The notes under the pieces were generated by a model that saw nothing but the letters and a program-made list of their open reading frames with translations, was not told the DNA's origin and did no database searches. A DNA stretch of 64,000 nucleotides, taken from contig JAJVIP010000010.1 of assembly GCA_022072025.1 (NCBI GenBank), positions 178,050 through 242,049 on the forward strand, written 5' to 3'. Numbering within the stretch: position 1 is the stretch's first letter; every line of letters begins with the position of its first letter. Below are positions 1 to 37,864 of the stretch, one piece after another. The stretch comes from Elusimicrobiota bacterium. Lineage in GTDB: Bacteria; Elusimicrobiota; Elusimicrobia; F11. Both the position numbers and the translations under genes were made by a program.

Positions 1-3000
1 GTCAATGGCCATATCCCCATATTGGACCCCTGCAGGAAACCATTTCAAAACACCTGGGGTGGACTTCAACTGAATCGCGTTCTGAAATTCGAGAATTAAT
101 CCGTTGTTCGGCCGGAGCGCCTCAATACACGGCCCAACAAGGTGACGATTGAAATATTGCGCGTACTTCACCCACAGACGGTCGGAATAACGGGGTGTTG
201 AATCTGGTCTATCAGCAAGCAGATTCTGACGTTGGACAAACCAAGGGTCAGGCGCAATGGGCGAACTCTCTAACTTTGATTCCCTCACGAGATAGCGCAC
301 CACCCAAGCATCAGGTTGTTCATCAGATGATGATCGAACCGCCTGCGCAATTTTTTCCATACACAAGTTATCGACCAGCCAGGAATATGAATTGTTTGCA
401 ATTCCAGCCCGAGCCGCCAAAAAGAGCATGTGAAGAAATGTCGCATTTGCATTTTTAAAGCCAAGTGGACGTTCTGGGTTGTTGTTGTAGAGATCGTGAA
501 GAAGGCGTTCATCAGCCGAATCCCACCTCTCAATGTCTTGATGAATAACCTCTTTCAGCGTATCGACAACAGGCTGGACAGGAGCTTCAAGCATGAGAAA
601 AATGGCATACAACCCGCCCAGCCTGGCCCTCCAAAGGTATTTGTCGGGATCAAAATCAGGTTCGATACGGGGATCAAAACCAACAGGAAGAAGCGGATTT
701 TTTAAATTTTCAAGAACAGCCCTCACAACCTCGGATGTTTTTGTCCCACTGCAAATATTCGCGGCAGATAAAGCCACATGATGATCCGGATCAGTCATTG
801 CCAAAAACAAGAGTCTGAGATCCTCTGGCTTGGCAGCATCCAACTCAGCGAAAATAAGAGCTTTTCGACGCTCCCAGTTTCGCCCCACAGGCCCAAGCCA
901 AACATACCTGCGGTAGCCCGCCTTTTTGGCCGTACCGTACGAGATCTTCATGCAAGAACTTAAATGAGAGAATTTCTCTCCGAGTCGCGAGTCAATCTCA
1001 GTCTCAAGAAAAGCCCTAATTTCACTCTCACGATCAAAGAGCGCCATAGCGAGTTGCTCCGTGGTTGCATTTTCAAATATCCTCGTGAAAGTTTGATCCA
1101 ATTCCTCCTCAAGGGTTGCAAGCGGCACGCCACGCAAGGATTTTTCTAGCGAGCGCTCGGCCACCCAAACCAGCCGTTGCTTGAATTCTTGAAGCATGGC
1201 TCGGTCTGAATTGCTTGCGAGCCGATTTTTTATGGTCCGTTCAAATAATTTTTGAACCTTTTCCTTCAGATCACGGGAATAATTCCGGGGGACATTCAAA
1301 TCCATATCCCCCCATCGGCCAGGGGTCAGATTGATCAACACGTTGGCCATTCGCTGAGCGAAGAAGAGAGTCAATATCACCGCTCCCTCCGTCCTTTCTA
1401 CGGCAAGCAACAACGCACGGTTCCCCCCGCGCCAATATCTCCACATCCAAATTCGCACGTACTCCAAAGAAAGGTTGACCGAAGCAGCAACACACAAGAC
1501 CAGCCCTCGGTTGTGGACGGCATCTGAGAAACCGGGCTCGGCCAGGAAGAGTTTCTGGCCTTCAAAGAGTTTATCGAGCGGGGTTTTTTCTTGGGCGAAA
1601 GGGGTCAGATAAGCCGGGCCTGCTTCCCGGTCCACCTTGGTCACCTTCGGAACGAAATCAATGACGGTGTGGCCGGCGTGGACGAGACGTTGAGTGAGAC
1701 CGGCAGAGTGGAAGCCACCGGCGACCAACAATGAAACCCCTCCTAACTCTCCTCGGCGAGTCGCCTTTGGCGACCTCCCCCCTGTGCGACGTGGGGAGGA
1801 ATATATAACGGACAACGATTGAAGAATATTTCGCGCCATTTTCTCATCGCGGATTTCGGCTTCTTCATAAAAAACTTCAAATTTCGATTTTCCATTTTCT
1901 ATTTTCGTCTTCTTGTACTCGTCCCACTCCTCTCTGGTCAACGCGAAATCCAGTAATTTTCTGGTGAGATATTGCCGTTTTCCCCTTTCCACCAGGTCCT
2001 GTTCATTCAATGTGGGTGAGAGGGCGGCATAGGTCTTATTTTCGACCTCACGCATCTCCCCAAAAAGTTTTTCCGCATCTATCCGTTCAGACAACGACAC
2101 ATAGCGCAGGTAATCCCGGAACGCCCGAAAAGGGGTGATGTCTATTCCATGCTTGCCGCAGAGGTCCCGCAAATAGCCATGAAAAGCGGTGTGATCCATC
2201 TGCCCCTTGCGGTACCACAGAGATTTCTCAAAAAACGATTGGGAGGCTTCTTTGGATAACTTCGGCAGGAGTTGAGAAAGAAGACGCGCTCGTTCAGCTT
2301 CAACTCGATTGAAATCGAGACTTGACTCAAGAGAGAAGGCTTCCCGAAAAATTTTCAACTGGGCCGAGTGGTTTTGGTCAAGGACAGCCCTTCGGGCTGC
2401 CACTTTTCCGGGGCCTGTATTCCCGGAAAAGTACTGCGAAGTGGAAACCCCGGACTTACGTCCGGGGCTTGTGCTGCAGTCAGGGAGAATTTTAATGTAA
2501 TCACCCAATGACATTGCACCTGCCCGGTAAGCGGTGACCGCACGGTCAAACGCCAAGAGCGCTGGATTCATGGATTTTTCTTTTTCGACTTCCAAGCGGC
2601 GACCATCATCCGCCCATTTCTTTTTCAAATCTTCCTGATGCGGCGCGGCCGAGCGGTACGCCTCGACGTTGGCGGCGTGGTGGGCGGGGTCGTCGACACC
2701 AAGAAGGGGTGGGAAGGAAAACGTATTTTTTTTAGGCGGACTCGTCATCAACGCATGAACCGGTCCCGATATTTTCCCTTGAGCCAGAAGAGTGTCCGCT
2801 GTTTTTTGGACGGCGGCTTGATCCGGAAAAATTTGGAATGCCTTTAAATCAATGGGGCCCGACGATCCTTCAAGAGCGACCTGGTCCACCATTCCTTGAT
2901 CGACCAGCGCCCGCACCGCCTTGCTGATGTTGGATTGGGCTTCGAAATTCTTATGGATATCTTGTATGAGAATAATGGCCGGGAATTTGGGATTTGGTGA

Positions 3001-3303
3001 TTTTGGCTGAGTCACTTTTCTAATACTGCCGAATTGAAGAAGCCCCTTAAGCGAATCATTTTCAAAATAATTTCTCCCGCTCTTCTTTTCGGGGGCGGGA
3101 ACATCCAACCCTGGTAAATTGAACATTCTTGGTTGGGGAGCGGGCAGAGCGGCCCATTGGCTGGAGTTGTTCTTATCGGAATTTGTCGCTTTCCTCCGCG
3201 CCTCCCACACATGGGTTTCGAATGAGTGCGCGAACGCGCAATTCGTCAAAAAATAGAGGAGGGCCAAGAGCACGATAAATGGTTGATTTCGGTATATTTT
3301 CAT
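1..3303 (-). CDS. Large predicted secreted protein of unknown function; N-terminus complete, C-terminus beyond left window edge (>=1100 aa); not in supplied ORF track
   Basis: Manual translation of the minus strand (codons occupying 3k+1..3k+3) gives one uninterrupted frame from ATG at 3303-3301 down to nt 1 with no stop. N-terminus MKIYRNQPFIVLLALLYFLTNCAFA resembles a Sec signal peptide. The track presumably omitted it because its stop lies outside the window. Only weak TraB/GumN-like motifs (QDIH, LLVAGGFHSAGL). Carries an in-frame copy of repeat family B at 2385-2482. Confidence 0.7.
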   Translation of the reverse strand, partial: MKIYRNQPFIVLLALLYFLTNCAFAHSFETHVWEARRKATNSDKNNSSQWAALPAPQPRMFNLPGLDVPAPEKKSGRNYFENDSLKGLLQFGSIRKVTQPKSPNPKFPAIILIQDIHKNFEAQSNISKAVRALVDQGMVDQVALEGSSGPIDLKAFQIFPDQAAVQKTADTLLAQGKISGPVHALMTSPPKKNTFSFPPLLGVDDPAHHAANVEAYRSAAPHQEDLKKKWADDGRRLEVEKEKSMNPALLAFDRAVTAYRAGAMSLGDYIKILPDCSTSPGRKSGVSTSQYFSGNTGPGKVAARRAVLDQNHSAQLKIFREAFSLESSLDFNRVEAERARLLSQLLPKLSKEASQSFFEKSLWYRKGQMDHTAFHGYLRDLCGKHGIDITPFRAFRDYLRYVSLSERIDAEKLFGEMREVENKTYAALSPTLNEQDLVERGKRQYLTRKLLDFALTREEWDEYKKTKIENGKSKFEVFYEEAEIRDEKMARNILQSLSVIYSSPRRTGGRSPKATRRGELGGVSLLVAGGFHSAGLTQRLVHAGHTVIDFVPKVTKVDREAGPAYLTPFAQEKTPLDKLFEGQKLFLAEPGFSDAVHNRGLVLCVAASVNLSLEYVRIWMWRYWRGGNRALLLAVERTEGAVILTLFFAQRMANVLINLTPGRWGDMDLNVPRNYSRDLKEKVQKLFERTIKNRLASNSDRAMLQEFKQRLVWVAERSLEKSLRGVPLATLEEELDQTFTRIFENATTEQLAMALFDRESEIRAFLETEIDSRLGEKFSHLSSCMKISYGTAKKAGYRRYVWLGPVGRNWERRKALIFAELDAAKPEDLRLLFLAMTDPDHHVALSAANICSGTKTSEVVRAVLENLKNPLLPVGFDPRIEPDFDPDKYLWRARLGGLYAIFLMLEAPVQPVVDTLKEVIHQDIERWDSADERLLHDLYNNNPERPLGFKNANATFLHMLFLAARAGIANNSYSWLVDNLCMEKIAQAVRSSSDEQPDAWVVRYLVRESKLESSPIAPDPWFVQRQNLLADRPDSTPRYSDRLWVKYAQYFNRHLVGPCIEALRPNNGLILEFQNAIQLKSTPGVLKWFPAGVQYGDMAID
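2385..2482. repeat. Palindromic repeat element, family B copy 1 (three consecutive hairpins), embedded in-frame in the 1-3303 CDS
   Basis: About 85% identical to 30598-30697. Hairpins: cagccc-ttcg-gggctg; acttttccgggg-cctgtat-tcccggaaaagt; ccccggac-tta-cgtccgggg. Translates in-frame as ...RKSGVSTSQYFSGNTGPGKVAAR... Confidence 0.6.
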
Positions 3304-14981: not shown

Positions 14982-15014
14982 TTTGACTCCTTCCCACGTT
15001 CCTGGCATTGTGTT

Positions 15015-15103
15015 CCGTCATCCCGGCCGGAAAACGTGCCGGGGCGACAGCGTCTTGTGCAGTAGCTTTAAGTACGATTCAACTGAATTATTCAGGTTAA
15101 ATA
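15015..15103. repeat. Palindromic repeat element, family A copy 1 (short variant) in the dapB-dapL spacer
   Basis: gtcatcccggc-cggaaaacgt-gccggggcgac outer stem plus gattcaactgaattattcaggttaa tail shared with 21913-22050 and 34897-35030; lacks the inner ggccgggatccaggtttt/aaaacctgggccccggcc hairpin. Confidence 0.55.
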
Positions 15104-21842: not shown

Positions 21843-21912
21843 CCCACGAAAACAGGAATCCAGCTTCTTAACCCGAATAATTCAGTTGAATGGCCATTAC
21901 CGTCTATCAACA

Positions 21913-22050
21913 GTGAATATTTTTGTGCCGTCATCCCGGCATGTTTTCTGGCCGGGATCCAGGTTTTCTTCATGGGGAAAACCTGGGCCCCGGCCAAAAG
22001 ATTGCCGGGGCGACGATTCAACTGAATCATTCCGGTTAAAATCATGAATG
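21913..22050. repeat. Palindromic repeat element, family A copy 2 (full length, nested hairpins) in the argH-TolC spacer
   Basis: gtgaatattttt...gtcatcccggc-atgttttct-ggccgggatccaggtttt-cttcatgggg-aaaacctgggccccggcc-aaaagatt-gccggggcgac-gattcaactgaatcattccggttaaaatcatgaat; ~90% identical to 34897-35030. Confidence 0.6.
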
Positions 22051-27768: not shown

Positions 27769-28863
27769 TTATTTGGAAAGGGCCAGGAATGCTTCAACCA
27801 CATTTTTGTCAAATTTGGTTCCCGTGCCCTCGCGAATAAGCTGATCGACAGCTTTGGTGTAGTCTTCTCCGATCACTCCGTTGATGTGTAGCTCCTCCAA
27901 ATTTTCCACAAAACAGATAATCCGGGAAGCCAAAGGAATATCCTCTCCCACCAATCCATCGGGATGACCAGTCCCGTCAAAATACTCGTGGTGGTGCAGA
28001 ATAATGGGCGCAATATTCTCGAGCAATTTGATGTGTCTCACCAGTTCCGCGCCCACCAGCGGGTGAAGTTTTTCGGGGGTGCGTTCCATCGTTTTGGTCA
28101 ATACATTCGGCAGATAACGCAAATCATGCACCGCCACCATGCCAATATCATGCAGGATGGCCCCGTAGTAGAGATGTCGATAATCTTCTCCCGCGATTCC
28201 CAATTCGCGCCCAATGCGGCACGACAACTCCGCCACTCGGTACGAATGCCCGGTCATCCTTGAATCAGCCCCTTCTATGGCCATGGTGATGATCTCAATG
28301 GTGTGAGAAAAAAAGTTTCGATAATCTTCACTCAACCGCGCGTTGTTAATAGAGGTCGCCGCCAAGGCCGCCAAATTCTCCATAATGGCTTTGTCCGTTT
28401 CGGAATACCCGCCATTGACTTTATTCAGAGCCTCCGCCACGCCAATCAATTGACCATTCACCACCATCGGAACCGCCAAAATTGATTTCGTTGAAAATCC
28501 GCTGGATTTGTCAATTTGGCCAGTGAACCGGGTATCCGAGGCCACATCGTTAATAATGACGGATTTTTGATTTTCAGCCACCCATCCAGCCACTCCTTTT
28601 CCCATGGGAACGTAAAAACGTTTTACGGAAGCGCCCTTTTCTCCGGTGGCCACCTTAAAAACCAATTGTTTTTTATTCGAGTCCAATAAAAGAATCGAAG
28701 CCGCTTCCGACCCCGTCATCCTCTCCACCGCCGCGCTGATTTCCCCCAACAGCGTGTCAACGTCTTGGCTCGTGGCCCATACTTTGGCCATTTCAATGAC
28801 CTCGGCTTCGTTGAGGTTGATGTCGGTCCCGAAAAGGTGCGCTTCTTTATTGGGTAGCTGCAA
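27769..28863 (-). CDS. GAF-HD-GYP domain c-di-GMP phosphodiesterase
   Basis: 364 aa; N-terminal GAF; HD motif (ILHDIGM) and HHEYFDGTGHPDGL HD-GYP signature. Confidence 0.8.
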   Translation of the reverse strand: MQLPNKEAHLFGTDINLNEAEVIEMAKVWATSQDVDTLLGEISAAVERMTGSEAASILLLDSNKKQLVFKVATGEKGASVKRFYVPMGKGVAGWVAENQKSVIINDVASDTRFTGQIDKSSGFSTKSILAVPMVVNGQLIGVAEALNKVNGGYSETDKAIMENLAALAATSINNARLSEDYRNFFSHTIEIITMAIEGADSRMTGHSYRVAELSCRIGRELGIAGEDYRHLYYGAILHDIGMVAVHDLRYLPNVLTKTMERTPEKLHPLVGAELVRHIKLLENIAPIILHHHEYFDGTGHPDGLVGEDIPLASRIICFVENLEELHINGVIGEDYTKAVDQLIREGTGTKFDKNVVEAFLALSK

Positions 28864-30580
28864 ACACTTCCTCCATGGTGGTCACGCCATTTGTCACTTT
28901 AATAAGGCCGTCCAACAACATCAGTCGCATGCCATTTTTCACCGCTTGTTCCCGAATGGGTTGAGCCGAAACTTCAGTTAAAAGAATACGCCGAATGTCA
29001 TCATCCATCAGTAACAGTTCATGTATACCCGCCCGGCCCTTGAATCCGGTTTTATTACAGGTATCACATCCTTTGCCCTTCATGAATTTGGCTTTTGAAA
29101 TATCAATCTGATACTTCTCAAAAACGACTTTCATTTCATCGGTGGCTTGGGTTGGCTTGGCGCAACTTGAACATACGCGACGCACCAACCGTTGGGCCAA
29201 AACTCCTTCCACCGTCCCGCTCACCAAAAATGAGGGCACTCCCATCTCATGTAAACGCGCCACCGCGGAAGGGGCATCGTTGGTGTGGATCGTTGAAAAA
29301 ACCAAGTGACCGGTCATGGCCGCTTCCATGGCGATCTGAGCCGTTTCTTTATCACGAATTTCACCCACCATGATGATATCGGGGTCTTGGCGCAAAAAGG
29401 CACGCAAGGCTTCAGCAAACGTGAACCCAATGTCTGGGTTCACGTTGGTTTGGATGATACCGGACAAATTGTATTCGACAGGGTTTTCAGCGGTCAGAAT
29501 TTTCGTGTCGGGATTGTTGATCGAATTGAGAGCGGCATACAGCGTGGTTGATTTTCCTGAACCCGTTGGACCGCAAACAAGAATCAGTCCATACGGGCGG
29601 GCCAACACATTCTTAAATTTCTCAAGCAATTCCGGGTGAAACCCCAACTTATTTAAATCCACACGGACACTCGCCCGGTCCAACACCCGCATCACACAAG
29701 ATTCTCCAAAAACAGTGGGCACAATGTTGACGCGGAATTCCACCGGATTTCCCTTGGCGCTGACTTGAATGCGTCCATCTTGCGGTTTTCGACGTTCTGT
29801 GATGTCCATTTGATTGGTCATAATTTTTATTTTGGCTATCACCGCATTTCGATAGGACATGGGAATCTGAAACGCAGCTTCCCGAAGATTGCCATCCACT
29901 CTGTAACGAACCAGAAATTTTGATTCAAAAGGTTCGATGTGAATATCTGAGGCTTTGCTCTGCAGGGCCCCCACAATGACGGCGTTGACAATACGCTCCA
30001 CTTCCGGGGCCGACGCGTCCACTTCCGTGACATCAACGGCCTCCTCCATTTTCTCAAGCGAAATCGCCCCATCGGTCTCAGGAATTTGTTCGGTGATGCC
30101 TTTCACCATGTCTTCGGCGCTGACCGAAGCCGCCACGCCATACACCTTGCCCAACTCGCGCAAGATGTCTTCCGGCAAGGCCAAATAGCTTTGAACCTCA
30201 AAACCCGTCCTTAAATGAATATCTTCAGAAATAAAAAAGTCCCGCGGGTCGGCCATCGCCACCAAAAGCACGCGTTCCTCTTTGGCAAAGGGAATGGCGA
30301 AGTGCCGGCGCGCATTTTGTTCAGAAACGATTTTTACGACCTCGGGATCCACATCCATTTCGGCCAAATCCACCGCGCGAACACGCCATTCTTTGGAAAG
30401 GGTTTGCAATACATCCACCCGTTCCACGAGTCCCATGTCCACCACCACTTGCTGAAGAGGCTTCTGCGTGTTTTTGGCTTCCACCGCCGCTTTTTCAAGC
30501 TGGTCCGCCGCTAAGAGCTTGTGCTCAAGGAAAATATCCTTGATTGTTTTCCGCCCCAATATGTTCGGATTATTTGCCAT
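28847..30580 (-). CDS. gspE: GspE/PilB-family secretion ATPase (type II secretion / type IV pilus assembly)
   Basis: 577 aa; N-terminal T2SSE_N domain, Walker A LVCGPTGSGKSTTL, Asp/His boxes, C-terminal tetracysteine CSSC...CDTC. Confidence 0.85.
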   Translation of the reverse strand: MANNPNILGRKTIKDIFLEHKLLAADQLEKAAVEAKNTQKPLQQVVVDMGLVERVDVLQTLSKEWRVRAVDLAEMDVDPEVVKIVSEQNARRHFAIPFAKEERVLLVAMADPRDFFISEDIHLRTGFEVQSYLALPEDILRELGKVYGVAASVSAEDMVKGITEQIPETDGAISLEKMEEAVDVTEVDASAPEVERIVNAVIVGALQSKASDIHIEPFESKFLVRYRVDGNLREAAFQIPMSYRNAVIAKIKIMTNQMDITERRKPQDGRIQVSAKGNPVEFRVNIVPTVFGESCVMRVLDRASVRVDLNKLGFHPELLEKFKNVLARPYGLILVCGPTGSGKSTTLYAALNSINNPDTKILTAENPVEYNLSGIIQTNVNPDIGFTFAEALRAFLRQDPDIIMVGEIRDKETAQIAMEAAMTGHLVFSTIHTNDAPSAVARLHEMGVPSFLVSGTVEGVLAQRLVRRVCSSCAKPTQATDEMKVVFEKYQIDISKAKFMKGKGCDTCNKTGFKGRAGIHELLLMDDDIRRILLTEVSAQPIREQAVKNGMRLMLLDGLIKVTNGVTTMEEVFAATQ

Positions 30581-30597
30581 ATTTTTTACACGTCAAG

Positions 30598-30697
30598 GGC
30601 TCCACACGACGGAGCCACTTTTCCGGGGCTTGTATCCCCGGAAAAGTACCGCGGTAAGGTAACCCCGGACTTACGTCCGGGCTTTGGCCGCAGTAAA
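30598..30697. repeat. Palindromic repeat element, family B copy 2 (three consecutive hairpins), in the gspE/HK divergent spacer
   Basis: ggctcc-acacgac-ggagcc; acttttccgggg-cttgtat-ccccggaaaagt; ccccggac-ttac-gtccggg. First hairpin differs in sequence but keeps its pairing relative to copy 1 (compensatory). Confidence 0.6.
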
Positions 30698-30721
30698 TGT
30701 CTCCGCTCAGTATAAAGTGGG

Positions 30722-30750
30722 TTGACAATAATTCAATCCCCAGTTCTAAT
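30722..30750 (+). promoter_or_regulatory. Candidate sigma70-type promoter for the HK/RR operon
   Basis: TTGACA at 30722-30727, 17-nt spacer, TCTAAT at 30745-30750, about 22 nt upstream of ATG 30773. Judged by consensus match only. Confidence 0.35.
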
Positions 30751-30772
30751 TTGTGTAAGATTCACCCCTTTT

Positions 30773-32263
30773 ATGGCGACCAAACGAATGCCGCTCAAAT
30801 TGAAATTGGCCTTTTTTTCCACTTTGTTGGTGGTATTTGTCGCTGTGAGTTTGAGCACATTCATTCGCCAAGGCCAAAAAAAAGCCATTGTTGAAACCCA
30901 AAAAACGGCACGATTAGACACGGTGAAAGCGTTGAGACAAGTGGCCCGGGAAGCCATCCTGGTGGATGATGACACGGGTCTCGTCAATTACGTGAATTTG
31001 CTTCAAAAGTCTCTTACCACGGCCCATGCGATGGTCATTGATGAACAGGGACGCATCCGCGTCCACACCGACCCCACCCTGATTGGAACCAAAGTGGATG
31101 ACCCCGCCTCACTAAAAGCCCTCGAAAGCCGCGATCGGCAAGACGTTGTTGTTCAGAATCTCACCTCTCCTGACGGGAAAAACATACTGGATTATTCCAT
31201 CCCCATCCTGCTCGGGCAAAATCCGGCCGAATACAGAGGCGTGGCGCGCATTGGGTTCGACAAAAACGTGATTGACGAAGAAATTCAAGAATCCCTTCGC
31301 ATTATGGACCAACGGATCAAAGGGGCCTTCTTTTTGGCTTTAATTCTGGGAATTGTCGGGGCCTTTTTACTGGCCACCTTCATCACGAAACCCATCGAAA
31401 CCCTGCGAACCGGCGCCCAACAAATTGGAGAAGGAAAATTGAGTCATCGAATCGAAGTCCACACGAACGATGAACTGCGCGAACTGGCCGATGACTTCAA
31501 CGCGATGGCCAAAAAACTGGGCGAACTCGATGAAATGAAACAAGATTTCGTATCCAACGTGACCCATGAACTCAGGTCTCCCATGACCTCCATTCGCGGA
31601 TACGTCGATCTTCTGCTTCAAGGAGCTCCAAGCTCCCTTTCTCAAACCCAAAAAGATTATCTGTCCGTCATTAAAAACAGCGCCGTTCGTTTGGGTCGGT
31701 TCATCGACAACTTGTTGGATGTCGCCAAAATTGAGGCCAACAAACTGAACCTGACCCCTGAATCCCTCTCTCTTCACGAACTGGGTTATGAAATGACCGT
31801 CCTTTTCAAGCCGCAACTGGATGAAAAAGGGATAGTTCTTAAAAATCTCATCCCGAAAGAAATGCCTCCCGCCTTTGTTGACAAGGACAAACTCGCCGAG
31901 GTGTTTATCAACTTGACCTCGAACGCCATCAAATTCACCCCTGAAAAAGGGACCATTGAATTCCAAGCCGCGGAAGGAGAAAAACATTTGGAAGTACGCG
32001 TTCAAGACAATGGCCCTGGAATTCCAGAGGACAAAGCTGCCAAACTGTTCAATAAGTTTGAACAGGTGAAGTCGAATCAAGGATTGGCGCGCAAACACAA
32101 AGGCACCGGATTGGGCCTGACCATCGCCAAAGGCATCATTGAGGCCCATGGGGGAAAAATATGGATCAAAAGCCCCGGACCTCATGGCGTGGGAACCGCG
32201 TTCTATTTTTCTGTTCCAAAACTGACCGCTGAATTAAAAGAGAGGCTTGCGAATGACATTTGA
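30773..32263 (+). CDS. Sensor histidine kinase (TM sensor, HAMP, HisKA, HATPase_c)
   Basis: Track start 30722 is a TTG inside a promoter-like sequence, so ATG 30773 is preferred. Two TM segments, HAMP, H-box VTHELRSPMTSIRGY, N/G1/G2 boxes (NAIKFT, DNGPGI, GTGLGL). Confidence 0.85.
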   Translation: MATKRMPLKLKLAFFSTLLVVFVAVSLSTFIRQGQKKAIVETQKTARLDTVKALRQVAREAILVDDDTGLVNYVNLLQKSLTTAHAMVIDEQGRIRVHTDPTLIGTKVDDPASLKALESRDRQDVVVQNLTSPDGKNILDYSIPILLGQNPAEYRGVARIGFDKNVIDEEIQESLRIMDQRIKGAFFLALILGIVGAFLLATFITKPIETLRTGAQQIGEGKLSHRIEVHTNDELRELADDFNAMAKKLGELDEMKQDFVSNVTHELRSPMTSIRGYVDLLLQGAPSSLSQTQKDYLSVIKNSAVRLGRFIDNLLDVAKIEANKLNLTPESLSLHELGYEMTVLFKPQLDEKGIVLKNLIPKEMPPAFVDKDKLAEVFINLTSNAIKFTPEKGTIEFQAAEGEKHLEVRVQDNGPGIPEDKAAKLFNKFEQVKSNQGLARKHKGTGLGLTIAKGIIEAHGGKIWIKSPGPHGVGTAFYFSVPKLTAELKERLANDI

Positions 32264-32948: not shown

Positions 32949-33020
32949 CCCCATTCGATCGCTCCAAATGATGACGCATCAGTTTCCTGTTTTTCCACGA
33001 ATAAATTTTCGGATTGCATT

Positions 33021-33047
33021 CCTCCCCACGCCGTACAGTGGGGAGGT
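33021..33047 (+). terminator. GC-rich hairpin downstream of the response regulator (possible terminator lacking U-tract)
   Basis: cctccccac-gccgtacag-gtggggagg: 9-bp perfect stem, 9-nt loop, 73 nt after the RR stop; no T-run follows. Confidence 0.3.
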
Positions 33048-33196
33048 TGGGAGGGGCAACAAGTGGGGACTCTATAGTTTTTTCAAGGCGACCCTCCTCG
33101 TCGCCTGCCGGGACATCGACAGAGCAATGTCACGTTATTTCCTGCGGTTGTCTTAGGCGTTCCATTAACAGAACGAATTCTTTATAATCCCGTTCT

Positions 33197-34519
33197 ATGA
33201 AGAGTACGGAAGATACCCGATACAGTCTAAGAATTCTATTGGCAGAATCTCATGAGAAAACCTGGCCATCCTTAATCAAACGCGATTTCAATTGGGATTT
33301 GCTGAGTTCCACGCGATTACTCACCTTGGTTGGACCGCGTCGTGCAGGAAAAACTTTTCTGTGTTACCAAATCCTACGCCACCTACTGGACCAAGGGACC
33401 CCACGCCACCGTTTGCTCTATCTCAATTTTGAAGATGAAAGGCTTTATCCCATGTCTGGTCAGGAGCTCACTCTTTTATTGGATGTGTACGAAGAACTCT
33501 TTCCTTGGAAATCAGCGGACCCTCTCTATGTGGTTCTAGACGAGATTCAGAACGTGCCGCAGTGGTCGAGATGGGCCCGGCGGGTACATGAACAGCATCC
33601 CAAGCTTCATTTAATTCTGACCGGATCTTCCTCAAAATTGCTTTCAACTGAGCTGGCCACAGAACTGCGCGGACGAACTTTGGGTTTCTCCGTCTATCCC
33701 TATTCATTCAGTGAGAGACTTCGCGCGGAGGGCGAGGATAACGCCGTATCATCTCTCATGCTTCATGGCCGGGGAAAAAATCGTATGAGACGGTCATTTG
33801 ATCAATTTCTGCTTAAAGGAGGATTTCCAGAACCGTGCCTGCAAGAAAATCCACAACCTGTTTTGCAGTCTTACTATCAAACGATGTTCATGAGAGATCT
33901 GGTTGAACGATATCGAATTAACAACGTGCCTTTATTTGAGGATTTTCTCAAAGTGGCCATCAGCCGTTTCGGATCTCTTTTTTCGGTTTCAGCGCTCCAC
34001 AAAGAACTCGAAGCGCGACATGGCCGAGTGAGCAAAGCGACGCTTGTTCAATACACGCGCTACGCGCGCGAGGTATTTCTTCTCTTCGAACTTCACCGTT
34101 TTGACTTCAAAATAAGGCGCCAACTGTTGCACCCTCGAAAGCTCTATGGCGTGGACGTGGGCCTTTTGAATGCTATTCGCTTTTCCTCCACAGAGGATCG
34201 AGGAAGACTTCTGGAAAACGCGGTTTATCTCGAGCTGCTCCGGCGACCCGCCGAGCTTTATTTTTGGCGACAGGAAGCCGAGTGTGATTTCCTAATAAAA
34301 GAGGGGAAAAAAGTAACGCAAGCCATTCAAGTATCTTGGTCGGTGGAAAAACCTGAAACCCGGGAACGGGAGTTAAGAGGGCTTCTAGAGGCAACCACCC
34401 AGTTTCATTTGAAAGAAGGACTCATTTTAACGGCCGGAGAAACAGCTGATTTCAAACGAGAACACTGCCGTATTCGAGTTCGACCTTTTTGGTACTGGGC
34501 TATAGGAGGGCAAAATTAA
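33197..34519 (+). CDS. AAA+ ATPase of the COG1373 / DUF4143 family
   Basis: 440 aa; Walker A GPRRAGKT, Walker B VVLDEIQ, DUF4143-like C-terminal region; TATAAT at 33183-33188 just upstream of the ATG suggests a short or absent leader. Confidence 0.75.
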   Translation: MKSTEDTRYSLRILLAESHEKTWPSLIKRDFNWDLLSSTRLLTLVGPRRAGKTFLCYQILRHLLDQGTPRHRLLYLNFEDERLYPMSGQELTLLLDVYEELFPWKSADPLYVVLDEIQNVPQWSRWARRVHEQHPKLHLILTGSSSKLLSTELATELRGRTLGFSVYPYSFSERLRAEGEDNAVSSLMLHGRGKNRMRRSFDQFLLKGGFPEPCLQENPQPVLQSYYQTMFMRDLVERYRINNVPLFEDFLKVAISRFGSLFSVSALHKELEARHGRVSKATLVQYTRYAREVFLLFELHRFDFKIRRQLLHPRKLYGVDVGLLNAIRFSSTEDRGRLLENAVYLELLRRPAELYFWRQEAECDFLIKEGKKVTQAIQVSWSVEKPETRERELRGLLEATTQFHLKEGLILTAGETADFKREHCRIRVRPFWYWAIGGQN

Positions 34520-34535: not shown

Positions 34536-36110
34536 TTAGGCCGCGGAGAGAAGGGCGCGGCGCTGAAGTCCCCAATCCTCTAGCTGAAGAATTTTAGAAA
34601 GGCCCTCCAACGATTCAAACAAGATTTTCAATAAAGTTTGATCCTTCGACTGGATCGTCACGGCGCGAGAGTGAATAAAGGCCAGTTGAGCCAGACTCAG
34701 ATTGTTTTGTTGAGCGAAACCCTCCGCCCGAAAGACCTTCTTTCCTTCTTTCGTATTCTCAAACCATGAGGCTCGCGCCATACTTGCACTATCCGCGTCG
34801 TCCTGGACACGAATATCCATATTTCGATTTTGAAACTCGCGGATGACACTCATTATTCTGGAATTTTCAGTTGAACGACCATTATCGCCTGTTGACGGTG
34901 AATCTTTTAGAGTCGTCATCCCGGCATGCTTCCTGGCCGGGATCCAGGTTTTTTCCTCAGAGAAAACCTGGGCCCCGGCCAAAAGATTGCCGGGGCGACG
35001 ATTTATCTGAATATTTCCGGTTAATGAATCGCTCAAGCCCCCTTCGCCTTCCACAACAACCCTCACCTCTTGTTGGAAGTGGAAAGCCACCACCAACGCC
35101 GACTTCAATTGATCTCTCATGGATTTGGGATTTTCCATCATCGACCGGTCCACCACAAGGACGCTGATTTTTCGAGTTAACAGCCCCCGCAACAACTCAA
35201 GATCCTGCGGTTTCTCGCCGGCCAACGCCAGTATTCCCACCACCAACTCCTTGTCTTTCTCCCGAATGTTGATCCCCTGTAAAACGTTGTGAAAGCCTGC
35301 TTGAAAATCACGGTTCGCAACAAGCTGGCTCAGTTGTAGGGGCGACGTCTCCAAGCCCCTCCCTTTTTTCCCGGATACGTCCGAAACCCGAATCCCCTCG
35401 CCAACCAAGGTCCATTGCACCGCTTGGCCAGGTTCTTGTTGGATCAGCGCCTTCACAATTTTCCCCAACCGCTGGCCGGCCAGATAAGAAGGGGGGAGAG
35501 AAGTCAGAAACGGCGCCGTGGCGATGGCAGTACGGTCTGGGCGGCGATCATTCCAGTCTTTGTGGAAAATCCAAAAATAATAGAGCTGGAAAAACACCAG
35601 GCCAACAACCGCGCTCCCCATCAACCACGCGCCGACAGCTCCGCTCAGCAATGAGTTCCAAAGTAAGAGAAGAACCCAGGAAGCCAAAACCCCCGGAGAA
35701 TGGAATTTCAGAGAGCCCATAAAAATTTCGATGCGATCCAAGGGCGTGGCGTGGTCAAGCCGATAGACCCACCCCTTGTTTTCCAGACTTTTAATCACCA
35801 CTTGATTCCAGTGCGGCAACAAGAACAAAATATTGACCCCCACATGAATGACCAAAGCCATCACGGCCGCGGAACTCGCCTCCAGACCGATGAGATCCCC
35901 CTCCGAAGTCGCTTTAATGAACAAAAGCCAAATCGCGATCACATTGGCCATCGTGTACATCATCGTGGCAATCAACACTTCCTTCTTTAAGGCCTCTTTA
36001 ACACTCTCAGGGTTGACCTTCCTTTCATCATTGACCTCCACCAACGACGGCCACATGGCTTGAGGAGAAGAACTTTCTTTTCCGTTTTTATTATATGTTG
36101 TATTAAACAA
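34536..36110 (-). CDS. Multi-pass membrane protein of unknown function with in-frame repeat-element A insertion (possible ATG start at 36056)
   Basis: Track start is a TTG at 36110; ATG at 36056 (MWPSL...) is an alternative. Several hydrophobic helices in the N-terminal 200 aa; the family A element at 34897-35030 is read through in-frame (...NRRPGNLLAGAQVF..KTWIPARKHAGMT...). Confidence 0.5.
   Translation of the reverse strand: MFNTTYNKNGKESSSPQAMWPSLVEVNDERKVNPESVKEALKKEVLIATMMYTMANVIAIWLLFIKATSEGDLIGLEASSAAVMALVIHVGVNILFLLPHWNQVVIKSLENKGWVYRLDHATPLDRIEIFMGSLKFHSPGVLASWVLLLLWNSLLSGAVGAWLMGSAVVGLVFFQLYYFWIFHKDWNDRRPDRTAIATAPFLTSLPPSYLAGQRLGKIVKALIQQEPGQAVQWTLVGEGIRVSDVSGKKGRGLETSPLQLSQLVANRDFQAGFHNVLQGINIREKDKELVVGILALAGEKPQDLELLRGLLTRKISVLVVDRSMMENPKSMRDQLKSALVVAFHFQQEVRVVVEGEGGLSDSLTGNIQINRRPGNLLAGAQVFSEEKTWIPARKHAGMTTLKDSPSTGDNGRSTENSRIMSVIREFQNRNMDIRVQDDADSASMARASWFENTKEGKKVFRAEGFAQQNNLSLAQLAFIHSRAVTIQSKDQTLLKILFESLEGLSKILQLEDWGLQRRALLSAA
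34897..35030. repeat. Palindromic repeat element, family A copy 3, inside the 34536-36110 CDS
   Basis: ~90% identical to 21913-22050 including flanking gtgaat...tgaat motifs; 134 bp; no stop codons in the host frame. Confidence 0.6.
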
Positions 36111-36122
36111 TAATATAGGTTA

Positions 36123-37379
36123 TTGTTTTTTACCATGAAATCACTATACACCACTATTGAAGCCCATAAGAGAGAGAGAGATTTGGCGCTTCGCCGGACT
36201 CTCGTCCCCCGCCATATGAGCGCCGCCCTTTCGAAAGCGCTTTCTTCCCCTCTGGTGAAAGTCATTACAGGACCCCGCCGGGCCGGGAAGTCCACCTTGG
36301 CTTTTCAGACTCTTTCTGGGAAAAATTTCGCCTATCTCAATTTCGAAGATGATGCGCTGAAAAGCGATGTCACCAGCGACGAGCTGATCGAAGCCATGGA
36401 TGAGGTGTACGGAAAAGCCGAATATGTCTTCTTTGATGAAATTCAGAACTATCCTCAATGGGAAAGCTTCATCAACAAATTACACCGCCGTGAGCACAAC
36501 CTGGTCATTACCGGCTCAAATTCAAGGCTCCTGAGTCGAGAATTGGGATCGGCTCTCACGGGCCGGCATCTTTCTTTCGAGTTATTGCCTTTTAGTTATC
36601 AAGAGTTTTTGGCTGCGCTTTCAAATAACACAAGCAATGACATGAAAAATTTTCACCGGTACTTAACATGGGGCGGTTTTCCCGAAGTTGTTCTTGGGAA
36701 TTCCGAACCGCACGGATACTTGCGCACTCTTTTTGATTCGGTCGTCCTGCGCGATATTGTGACCCGTCACCACATCCGTTCCTCATTGGCTATTCATGAT
36801 CTGCTGAACCTTCTCATCAATAACGCAACAAGCCGGTTTTCAGCGCGAAGCCTGGAACGATCCTTGGGCTCACTCTCCATCGCCACCGTTCAGAAATTCA
36901 TTGCCTATTTTCGTGAGGCCTATTTGGTCCATGACCTTCAACCGTACTTCTTCAAGCCGCGGTTGAGAATCAAGGCAGACCGCAAAATCTATGCCTATGA
37001 CAATGGCTTGATTTCCGCCGTCTCACAGCCCACCACCTCAAATCAATCGCGGCTGCTTGAGAACCTGGTTTTTATTGAACTCGTGCGGCGCGGATTCAAA
37101 CCAAATCTCGATTTATTCTATTACCAAACTCGATCCGGCAACGAAGTGGATTTCTTGGTTCGGAATGGATCAAAGAACATTGAGCTCATTCAAGTGACGC
37201 AAAACCTTGCCGCCTTAAAAACCCGTGAACGAGAGCTTCGCTCCCTTCATCAGGCGTCAGAAGAACTCAATGTCTCCAAACTCACCATCCTCACCATGGA
37301 TACGGAAGAAACAATCAAAGAAAGCGGGATTCGAATTCGCGTGATCCCATGCCAGAAATGGCTGTTAGAAAAAATCTGA
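36123..37379 (+). CDS. AAA+ ATPase of the COG1373 / DUF4143 family (paralog of 33197-34519)
   Basis: 418 aa; Walker A GPRRAGKST, Walker B VFFDEIQN, same architecture as the other copy; divergent from the membrane-protein gene with a short AT-rich spacer. Confidence 0.75.
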   Translation: MFFTMKSLYTTIEAHKRERDLALRRTLVPRHMSAALSKALSSPLVKVITGPRRAGKSTLAFQTLSGKNFAYLNFEDDALKSDVTSDELIEAMDEVYGKAEYVFFDEIQNYPQWESFINKLHRREHNLVITGSNSRLLSRELGSALTGRHLSFELLPFSYQEFLAALSNNTSNDMKNFHRYLTWGGFPEVVLGNSEPHGYLRTLFDSVVLRDIVTRHHIRSSLAIHDLLNLLINNATSRFSARSLERSLGSLSIATVQKFIAYFREAYLVHDLQPYFFKPRLRIKADRKIYAYDNGLISAVSQPTTSNQSRLLENLVFIELVRRGFKPNLDLFYYQTRSGNEVDFLVRNGSKNIELIQVTQNLAALKTRERELRSLHQASEELNVSKLTILTMDTEETIKESGIRIRVIPCQKWLLEKI

Positions 37380-37492: not shown

Positions 37493-37864
37493 TTAGCGGA
37501 GTTTTTCGTAACTTTTTTGACTTCCGTATTGGAGACATAAATTCCGGAAGGAATCTGATTCAATGTCGATGTTGTTTTCCTTGATCAGCGCCGCAATATC
37601 CAGCAAATCTTTTAATTCCCGTCTTTCCGGATTTTGTTTGATGGCATGCAACTTCATTGCGATAAGATGATCTAAGCTTGGGACAATAAAAGGCTCTCCT
37701 GAAATCGTGATTTCCTGGCCATCCCTGATGACGGCTTTTAAGGTTTCTTCATCAGTGAACAAGAAATCGATGTCTTTCGTCTCCCGAGAAAATTTGTAGT
37801 GATTCACAGCAAATCCGCCGATCAAAACACTCGGTAAATTTTTTTCACGAAAGAGCCGCCCCAA
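37493..37864 (-). CDS. Small nucleotidyltransferase-fold-like protein (AbiEii/MNT-like motif); candidate immunity or accessory gene of the giant ORF
   Basis: 123 aa, TTG start 22 nt after the giant-ORF stop, same strand; LIGGFAVNHYKFSRETKDIDFLF resembles the GG..A......R.T.DIDF nucleotidyltransferase motif. Confidence 0.45.
   Translation of the reverse strand: MGRLFREKNLPSVLIGGFAVNHYKFSRETKDIDFLFTDEETLKAVIRDGQEITISGEPFIVPSLDHLIAMKLHAIKQNPERRELKDLLDIAALIKENNIDIESDSFRNLCLQYGSQKSYEKLR

Follow-up and report, generated by a model that had tools for sequence, protein, structure and literature searches.

A Three-Hairpin Palindromic Repeat, Probably a Mobile DNA Element, in Genes and a Gene Leader of Elusimicrobia

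Two copies of the repeat and their surroundings

The window, by which we mean the whole 64-kb stretch of DNA analyzed here, belongs to a MAG identified by the locus-tag prefix KCHDKBKB (proteins MCG3204982.1, MCG3205888.1 and MCG3206000.1) and the Logan run SRR10609165. Its phylum, Elusimicrobia, is known almost solely from metagenomes. The window carries two copies of a structured repeat, termed family B, one within a large coding sequence (CDS) and the other in the 5' leader of a gene for a secretion or pilus ATPase. The features at these two loci are as follows.

1..3303, minus strand: host CDS of copy A (KCHDKBKB_01699, MCG3204982.1), the N-terminal 1101 codons of a 2097-aa protein
2377..2478, minus strand: copy A, 102 nt or 34 codons, in frame in the host CDS
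2385-2399, 2402-2432 and 2448-2467 (plus coordinates): the variable, the conserved 11-12-bp and the third hairpin of copy A
28847..30580, minus strand: gspE/pilB-type secretion or pilus ATPase gene (Pfam T2SSE and MshEN; orthologs 86-93% identical)
30592..30692, minus strand: copy B, 101 nt, in the gspE/pilB 5' leader
30598-30616, 30617-30647 and 30663-30681 (plus coordinates): the variable, the perfect 12-bp and the third hairpin of copy B
30709..30736, minus strand: promoter-like site of gspE, TTGAAT-16 nt-TATACT, directly upstream of copy B, with hexamers found in all relatives
30773..32263, plus strand: divergent histidine-kinase (HK) gene, with its likely start at ATG 30773, not TTG 30722

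The core patterns of family B (35 nt and 21 nt) are confined to two sites of the 64-kb window, where none is expected from 100 shuffles. A repeat search of the window aligns the two copies with 86% identity across 73 nt. Over the whole element the identity is 78%, and it rises to 87% without the variable hairpin, in which 8 of 19 positions agree. The core patterns, the identities and the shuffles bear out the original prediction of a two-copy repeat, and a comparison of flanks and copies refines its bounds to 2377-2478 and 30592-30692. Whichever strand is folded, and whether it is taken as RNA or as single-stranded DNA, both copies form three hairpins. The fold z-scores range from −4.9 to −5.9 for RNA and from −5.3 to −7.6 for DNA, and none of the shuffled sequences folds as well, which confirms the three predicted hairpins per copy for both nucleic acids.

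When read in gene orientation, all three copies known as DNA (A, B and a third one, L008, described below) have the same order of parts: the flank NAC, (T/A)GC(A/G)GC, a left hairpin, the 12-bp hairpin, a right hairpin, and CCTTGAC. The left hairpin (CCCCGGAC/GTCCGGGG; third in plus coordinates) lies inside an outer stem that takes in the flanking AC. In copy B, this outer stem is formed by 30648-30654 and 30688-30694, and thus includes the flanking bases 30693-30694. The central 12-bp hairpin (ACTTTTCCGGGG/CCCCGGAAAAGT) is strongly conserved, and the right, variable hairpin has a fixed length and an exchangeable sequence.

A few details of the individual stems are corrected here. The 12-bp stem is indeed perfect in copy B, but in copy A the top pair reads G-T or A-C, depending on the strand. 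The variable hairpin does keep its pairing despite the change in sequence, although its loop in copy A is ttc rather than ttcg. The third hairpin has the outer stem as an additional feature that was not part of the description. Copy B has a 1-nt deletion in the third hairpin; the CDS copies available as DNA (A and L008) are exactly 102 nt long, whereas the intergenic copy B has 101 nt.

In the minus-strand frame of the host CDS, no stop occurs between 3342 and the edge of the window, and the ATG lies at 3303. Copy A had been described as lying in frame and without stops in the 1-3303 CDS, which is correct provided that this CDS is read on the minus strand. Copy A is translated as CSTSPGRKSGVSTSQYFSGNTGPGKVAARRAVLD, corresponding to host residues 276-309. 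The insertion is therefore in frame as proposed, but it is 34 aa long, not 27. The segment is missing from eight of eight homologs that are 31-38% identical to the host protein and also from a 40%-identical paralog, P0131. By this check of the host protein against its homologs, the insert is lineage-specific, as it is missing in all nine.

An AlphaFold model computed with the homolog alignment shows a confident domain at residues 84-555, in which the mean pLDDT of 10-residue blocks is mostly 70-91. Inside this domain, pLDDT values below 50 occur solely at residues 276-311 and 503-520. The first of these gaps coincides with copy A, and the second is another palindromic insert. A family B insert in a coding gene adds a hydrophilic 34-aa loop that is rich in Gly, Ser, Pro and Lys, exposed on the surface, and probably disordered. 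Because the element is 3 × 34 nt long and has one open frame, it survives where it has entered a coding gene at a tolerant loop or tail, an outcome shared with the palindromic elements of Rickettsia.

Copy B was correctly placed between gspE and the HK gene. The HK open reading frame (ORF) is listed from TTG 30722, but it is ATG 30773 that aligns with the N terminus of the orthologs (MPxxR.PLKLKFAFF...), and the true intergenic region therefore is 30581-30772. Copy B begins 16 nt past the −10 box of gspE and ends 11 nt ahead of the gspE ATG, and 80 nt separate it from the start codon of the HK gene. The same region was compared among six distinct relatives (L110, L111, L112, L114, L115, and L116 with L117). 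All six keep the divergent HK/gspE order and the TTGAAT/TATACT promoter, and the family B element is absent from all of them. The distance from the −10 box to the gspE ATG is 6-24 nt in the relatives versus 128 nt in the window because the 101-nt copy B sits between the two sites.

Given that copy B lies between the gspE promoter and the start codon, it is transcribed as three stable leader hairpins. These hairpins may alter the stability or the translation of the gspE mRNA, if the predicted fold is adopted. In this fold, the GUGUAAAAAAU-AUG of the leader is unpaired and the last 11 nt are A-rich, so the start of gspE translation is probably not blocked by copy B.

Two side observations concern this region. 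The terminal TTGAC of the element supplies an outward-facing −35-like hexamer. At 30569-30596 on the minus strand, the terminal TTGACG is followed by a 16-nt spacer and by AATAAT in gspE codons 3-5, which is a promoter-like arrangement with a score of 10/12. Separately, L110, L111 and L114 contain CGTC-tagged double-hairpin repeats between the HK start and the gspE promoter (e.g., CCGTCATTCCCGCGAAGGCGGGAATCC...CCCCCGCCTTCGCGGGGGAGACGAC), as seen in the 170 nt before the gspE ATG, and these repeats resemble the core of a terminal inverted repeat (TIR)-bearing MITE of the window that is described below. Within this clade, small repeats have thus landed repeatedly between the HK gene and gspE.

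Additional copies with filled and empty sites

The proposal that these sequences form a repeat family holds. Five copies are counted in total (A, B, L008, P0130 and P0131), of which three are known as DNA. At least four reside in the genome of the window and one in another Elusimicrobia genome. Exact patterns of the central hairpin were scanned against 185,579 species genomes and JGI metagenomes. The sole true extra copy in these scans was L008, and all remaining matches were unrelated hairpins. This 102-nt copy (L008 3788-3889) came from the scan that used a single genome for each species and belongs to the Elusimicrobia MAG fen_1177 (PLLH01). It occupies, in frame, the non-conserved tail of an RNase HII gene, 10 residues beyond the end of the conserved core. 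A scan of viral contigs gave 90 matches, all due to chance, and a plasmid BLAST gave no match. With an nhmmer profile of the three DNA copies, neither the window nor an extra 6.5 kb from the window's own genome (L113) nor ~125 kb from relatives yielded any diverged or partial copy.

Since both CDS copies have the same orientation and phase and encode similar peptides, a peptide profile was also searched. No match was obtained in a word-indexed search. In an exhaustive HMMER search of 1.84 billion representative proteins, the profile of the window peptide identified the insert in the host protein of copy A (P0129, 2097 aa) and in exactly two other proteins, P0130 (5392 aa, insert at residues 2190-2224) and P0131 (5301 aa, insert at residues 703-741). 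The candidates P0132-P0136 were rejected as carriers because they are unrelated repeat proteins. P0129, P0130 and P0131 correspond to KCHDKBKB_01699, KCHDKBKB_02611 and KCHDKBKB_02726, which are paralogous giant proteins encoded by a single MAG, the same one as the window. All four CDS copies share the same phase and orientation. The three in-frame copies from this global search, which come from one paralogous family in one genome, could partly result from gene conversion, although their positions and flanks differ.

P0130 includes an internal duplication of ~170 aa whose halves are ~97% identical except for one clean 35-aa gap. The two halves constitute a filled and an empty site, in which GVLD and QNAE are separated by the insert in one case and directly joined (GVLDQNAE) in the other. 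The P0130 insert has 35 aa (105 nt inferred), with one extra codon in the loop of the third hairpin, versus 34 aa for the other three. In P0131, the insert is located at a position where the host protein of the window has none. No copy was caught as a difference between strains of one species.

Nature of the element and possible routes of movement

The best explanation for these observations is that family B is a ~102-nt non-autonomous mobile palindromic DNA element of an uncultured Elusimicrobia lineage, and not an RNA gene, a conclusion we hold with good confidence. No transposase gene is present in the window or in the fetched loci and their flanks, which is why the element is regarded as non-autonomous.

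The ends of the element are distinctive. The right end is an invariant CCTTGAC and the left end is (T/A)GC(A/G)GC. On the 5' side, all five insertions are flanked by NAC, which extends to T-N-A-C in the three DNA copies; this degenerate motif, drawn from five sites, is suggestive of a preferred target. In P0130 and P0131, an Asp codon (GAC or GAT) precedes the insert and the insert ends with ...LD, which is consistent with the NAC/TTGAC rule. The left flanks of the DNA copies are ctgAC (A), tttAC (B) and atcAC (L008).

Strict MITEs have TIRs of 15-30 bp and a target-site duplication (TSD) for each copy. If family B were a MITE in this classical sense, it would be a deletion derivative of an insertion sequence with a DDE transposase, moved by cut-and-paste through its TIRs and leaving TSDs. 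Its small size, its several copies and its insertion polymorphism would agree with this idea, and the same genome contains a true TIR-bearing MITE family (21868-22039). Moreover, the copy A flank cTGAC resembles the terminal TTGAC and can be read as a 4-bp duplication. However, the left flanks of copy B (TTAC) and L008 (TCAC) differ from the invariant TGAC on the right, and thus the right TGAC is part of the element itself rather than a second copy of the target. No TSD is evident in any of the three DNA copies. TIRs are also lacking, in that TGCNGC... at one end and ...CCTTGAC at the other do not form an inverted repeat. We therefore consider a classical MITE quite unlikely.

The original prediction regarded the compensatory change in the variable hairpin as a sign of selection on RNA or DNA structure. 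In the alignment of the three DNA sequences, four of the eight pairs of this right hairpin are changed on both sides and 100% of the cells are paired. Control alignments in which the partner was slid by 1-3 columns give no two-sided changes. The covariation in this helix is therefore real. The remaining two helices hardly vary, and for this reason they are uninformative on covariation.

Most of the change in the right hairpin is a swap between two versions of equal length, each of which occurs in at least two copies and which agree at only 8 of 19 positions between copies A and B. One version, GCAGCCC-GAA-GGGCTGTC, is present in copy A and L008, and also in P0130 as judged from its peptide AAQRAV. 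The other, GCTCC-GTCGTGT-GGAGCC, is present in copy B, and also in P0131 as judged from its peptide APLYGA. Outside the right hairpin, the highest identity is that between B and L008 (89%), whereas within it A and L008 agree best (16/19 vs. 7-8/19 for pairs with B). This incongruent distribution of the hairpin versions relative to the rest of the element looks like an exchange of modules. A simple point compensation is seen at one pair only, C-G to T-A, between copy A and L008.

These data bear on the proposal that family B functions as a structured RNA, be it a small RNA gene or a cis-regulatory leader, with hairpins that are preserved by selection on the RNA. The folds are very stable on both strands, one helix covaries, and copy B resides within the transcribed gspE leader. 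On the other hand, two of the three helices hardly vary and hence do not speak for either side. The contexts of the copies are unrelated, as they comprise a leader, three CDS interiors and the tail of an RNase HII, and six distinct relatives have the same operon without the element. The window has no Rfam match at gathering thresholds (the best is mir-2861, with 23 bits vs. 89), no hairpin of copies A and B is followed by a terminator-like U-tract, and none of the copies has a promoter of its own. The pairing is thus maintained as predicted, but the unrelated contexts, the empty sites and the absence of Rfam matches mean that a functional RNA does not follow from it, and we view this proposal as improbable. 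The observations fit a structure that is retained as part of a mobile DNA element, in which pairing is expected at the DNA level and no RNA function is required. An intrinsic terminator was rejected as there is no hairpin with a following U-tract, and an integron attC site, a CRISPR repeat and a retron RNA were rejected because their architecture is wrong and their partner genes are absent.

It is very improbable that family B represents a short protein module, in which a 34-aa peptide was selected (as a binding or modification motif) and spread among giant paralogs with the hairpins being incidental: The four CDS copies do share orientation, phase and the motif SG.....YFSG.(T/S).PGKV, and three of them are in paralogs of one family in one genome, but copy B is non-coding, with a frame-breaking 1-nt deletion and a stop just past the element, the variable hairpin alters the peptide (AARRAV vs. 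APSCGA) while base pairing is kept, the segment is predicted to be disordered, among the 1.84 billion proteins searched the motif recurred in unrelated repeats only, and hairpin z-scores of about −5 to −7 are unexpected for a coding sequence.

In the mechanism that we propose, a transposase supplied in trans would recognize the family B hairpins as single-stranded DNA. The lack of TIRs and TSDs, the hairpins at the ends and the presence of a motif on the 5' side only hint at a single-strand mechanism like that of IS200/IS605 (Y1 HUH) elements. By this analogy, an HUH/Y1 enzyme of the IS200/IS605 or RAYT type is the best candidate for the mobilizing enzyme, although we offer this assignment tentatively. 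If single strands were inserted into the template of the lagging strand, the copies would be expected to favor one strand. All three DNA copies do have the same strand of the element on the G-rich strand, a count of three that is confounded by gene orientation.

In IS608, the target tetranucleotide pairs with a 4-nt guide located 5' of the foot of the left hairpin (PMC3201880). Copy B fits this rule, with the flank TTAC and with AAAG just 5' of the left hairpin foot; these are the very sequences of IS608. Pairing is kept in copy A, where the two sites are TGAC and CAAG. The rule fails in three of the five copies, namely L008 (TCAC/ATAG) and, as judged from codons, P0130 and P0131. Likewise, no IS608-type right-end guide fits the invariant TGAC end. 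Target and guide are spaced by 7 nt in family B, whereas the cleavage site of IS608 is 19 nt from the hairpin foot. The hairpins bound by TnpA are identical at both ends of IS608, which is not the case for all members of its family; the end hairpins of family B are dissimilar, and the right one differs even between copies A and B of one genome.

A bolder version of this idea is that family B is a miniature IS200/IS605-type "peel-and-paste" element with an internal 4-nt guide that covaries with its target (AAAG/TTAC and CAAG/TGAC). We consider this rather unlikely. If it were true, then excision would be seamless, and the inserts in giant proteins and the hairpins in the gspE/pilB leader would be reversible. 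Family B would be a switch-like source of variation in proteins and expression in Elusimicrobia, with its exchangeable right hairpin acting as a second module for specificity.

Relationship to known repeats and other repeats in the region

Palindromic repeats that are inserted in frame are well documented, including the RPEs of Rickettsia and REPs within genes of several phyla (PMC10969869, PMC3733652). RPEs are short palindromic repeats found both in intergenic regions and in frame in unrelated ORFs, where they encode a tolerated family peptide, and they are not known to have their own transposase (PMC10969869; PMC3733652). Family B resembles them in several respects. RPEs are dispersed palindromic repeats of ~100-150 bp, and the five family B copies are 101-102 nt long (105 nt inferred for P0130). 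Family B is in frame in four ORFs, where it encodes a family-specific peptide in a loop predicted to be disordered, and homologs without the insert exist. In contrast to Rickettsia, which are obligate intracellular Alphaproteobacteria, the hosts of family B are free-living or uncultured Elusimicrobia. The CGTC end tag described by Di Nocera et al. is missing in family B, a comparison made by description only; CGTC occurs at the ends of copy B alone, and only when one flanking base is counted. Family B also differs from RPEs in its low known copy number and in its build from three separate hairpins, of which one is exchangeable as a module.

Ends-only derivatives of IS200/IS605 elements (palindrome-associated transposable elements, PATEs) have neither TIRs nor TSDs (PMC7290912) and are inserted 3' of one specific tetra- or pentanucleotide. 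Family B is similar to PATEs and to the related REP/RAYT system in lacking TIRs and TSDs; it also carries a hairpin near each end, the two being dissimilar, and may be inserted 3' of a short conserved motif (PMC7290912; PMC3201880). No Y1 transposase (TnpA or RAYT) is encoded in the window or the fetched loci, and a GTAG tag is absent apart from a chance occurrence in L008. REP, ERIC and BOX repeats as well as MITEs are small structured sequences that can form in-frame fusions or transcript hairpins (PMC10969869; PMC3733652; PMC2229807). ERIC repeats and MITEs have TIRs and a REP is a single tagged palindrome of 20-40 bp, but family B has neither of these characteristics. A REP or REPIN consists of a 20-40-bp palindrome with a GTAG or CGTC tag, and these repeats are usually arranged as inverted pairs, extragenic and abundant. 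Family B is 102 nt long with three different hairpins and no conserved tag, and four of its five copies are intragenic. By their defining tags, family B is outside the RPE, REP and strict MITE families. The phenomenon itself is known, but the family is new, as is its occurrence in this phylum, and a build of three hairpins without TIRs is unusual.

With family B, the presence of selfish DNA within coding genes, a phenomenon best known in Rickettsia, is extended to Elusimicrobia. Giant, fast-evolving proteins of this phylum absorb several families of palindromic repeats in the same loops. Annotation is affected by such inserts, which inflate or extend ORFs (examples are the 64-aa "spurious" ORFs and the tail of RNase HII) and may be misread as RNA genes. 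How the element moves can be tested concretely with the help of its NAC flank, its ends without TIRs or TSDs, and its clean empty and filled sites.

The genome of the window and its relatives host other small palindromic repeat families. The true MITE family of the window is found at 21868-22039 and at ~34853-35025, with a partial copy at 15008-15101. It has 24-nt TIRs (TTAACCCGAATAATTCAGTTGAAT / ATTCAACTGAATCATTCCGGTTAA) and a double-hairpin core. Its first copy inflates the 5' end of the ORF of an outer-membrane efflux gene. The second copy is 85% identical and is contained in an unannotated ORF of 524 aa that has no Pfam match (34536-36110, minus strand).

A third palindromic repeat, ATTCCTCCCCACGyCGyACAGkGGGGAGGT, is unrelated to family B. 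It is present at 33018-33060, where it is intergenic, and at 1760-1802 (an insert of the host CDS at ~1745-1805). The latter copy is in frame in the host CDS of copy A, encodes the window-specific insert SSPRRTGGRSPKATRRGELGG, and corresponds to the other low-confidence gap of the host protein. At residues ~511-580, P0131 (KCHDKBKB_02726) has an insert of ~70 aa (…NAVAPACFWPGPRFSSDGEPGSRPKDCRDDG…), which resembles a palindromic repeat in translation and is located in the same loop as the third repeat family in the host protein of the window.

Several neighboring genes were also noted. A tyrosine recombinase gene (Phage_integrase, 358 aa; L113 970-2046) is located ~4.5-5.6 kb left of the first position of the window and 1.5 kb past the 3' end of the host gene, and no link between it and family B was found. 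The MITE-carrying ORF is flanked by two paralogous AAA_14/DUF4143 ATPase genes (33197-34519 and 36123-37379), and a fragment of an AbiEii-type nucleotidyltransferase toxin gene (37493-37864) adjoins these ATPase genes. A single ORF of 8690 aa (37887-63959, minus strand) occupies 40% of the window and has a G+C content of 0.53-0.55, compared with 0.49-0.50 elsewhere. Relatives carry giant genes at the same place that encode proteins of up to 18,006 aa (L111).
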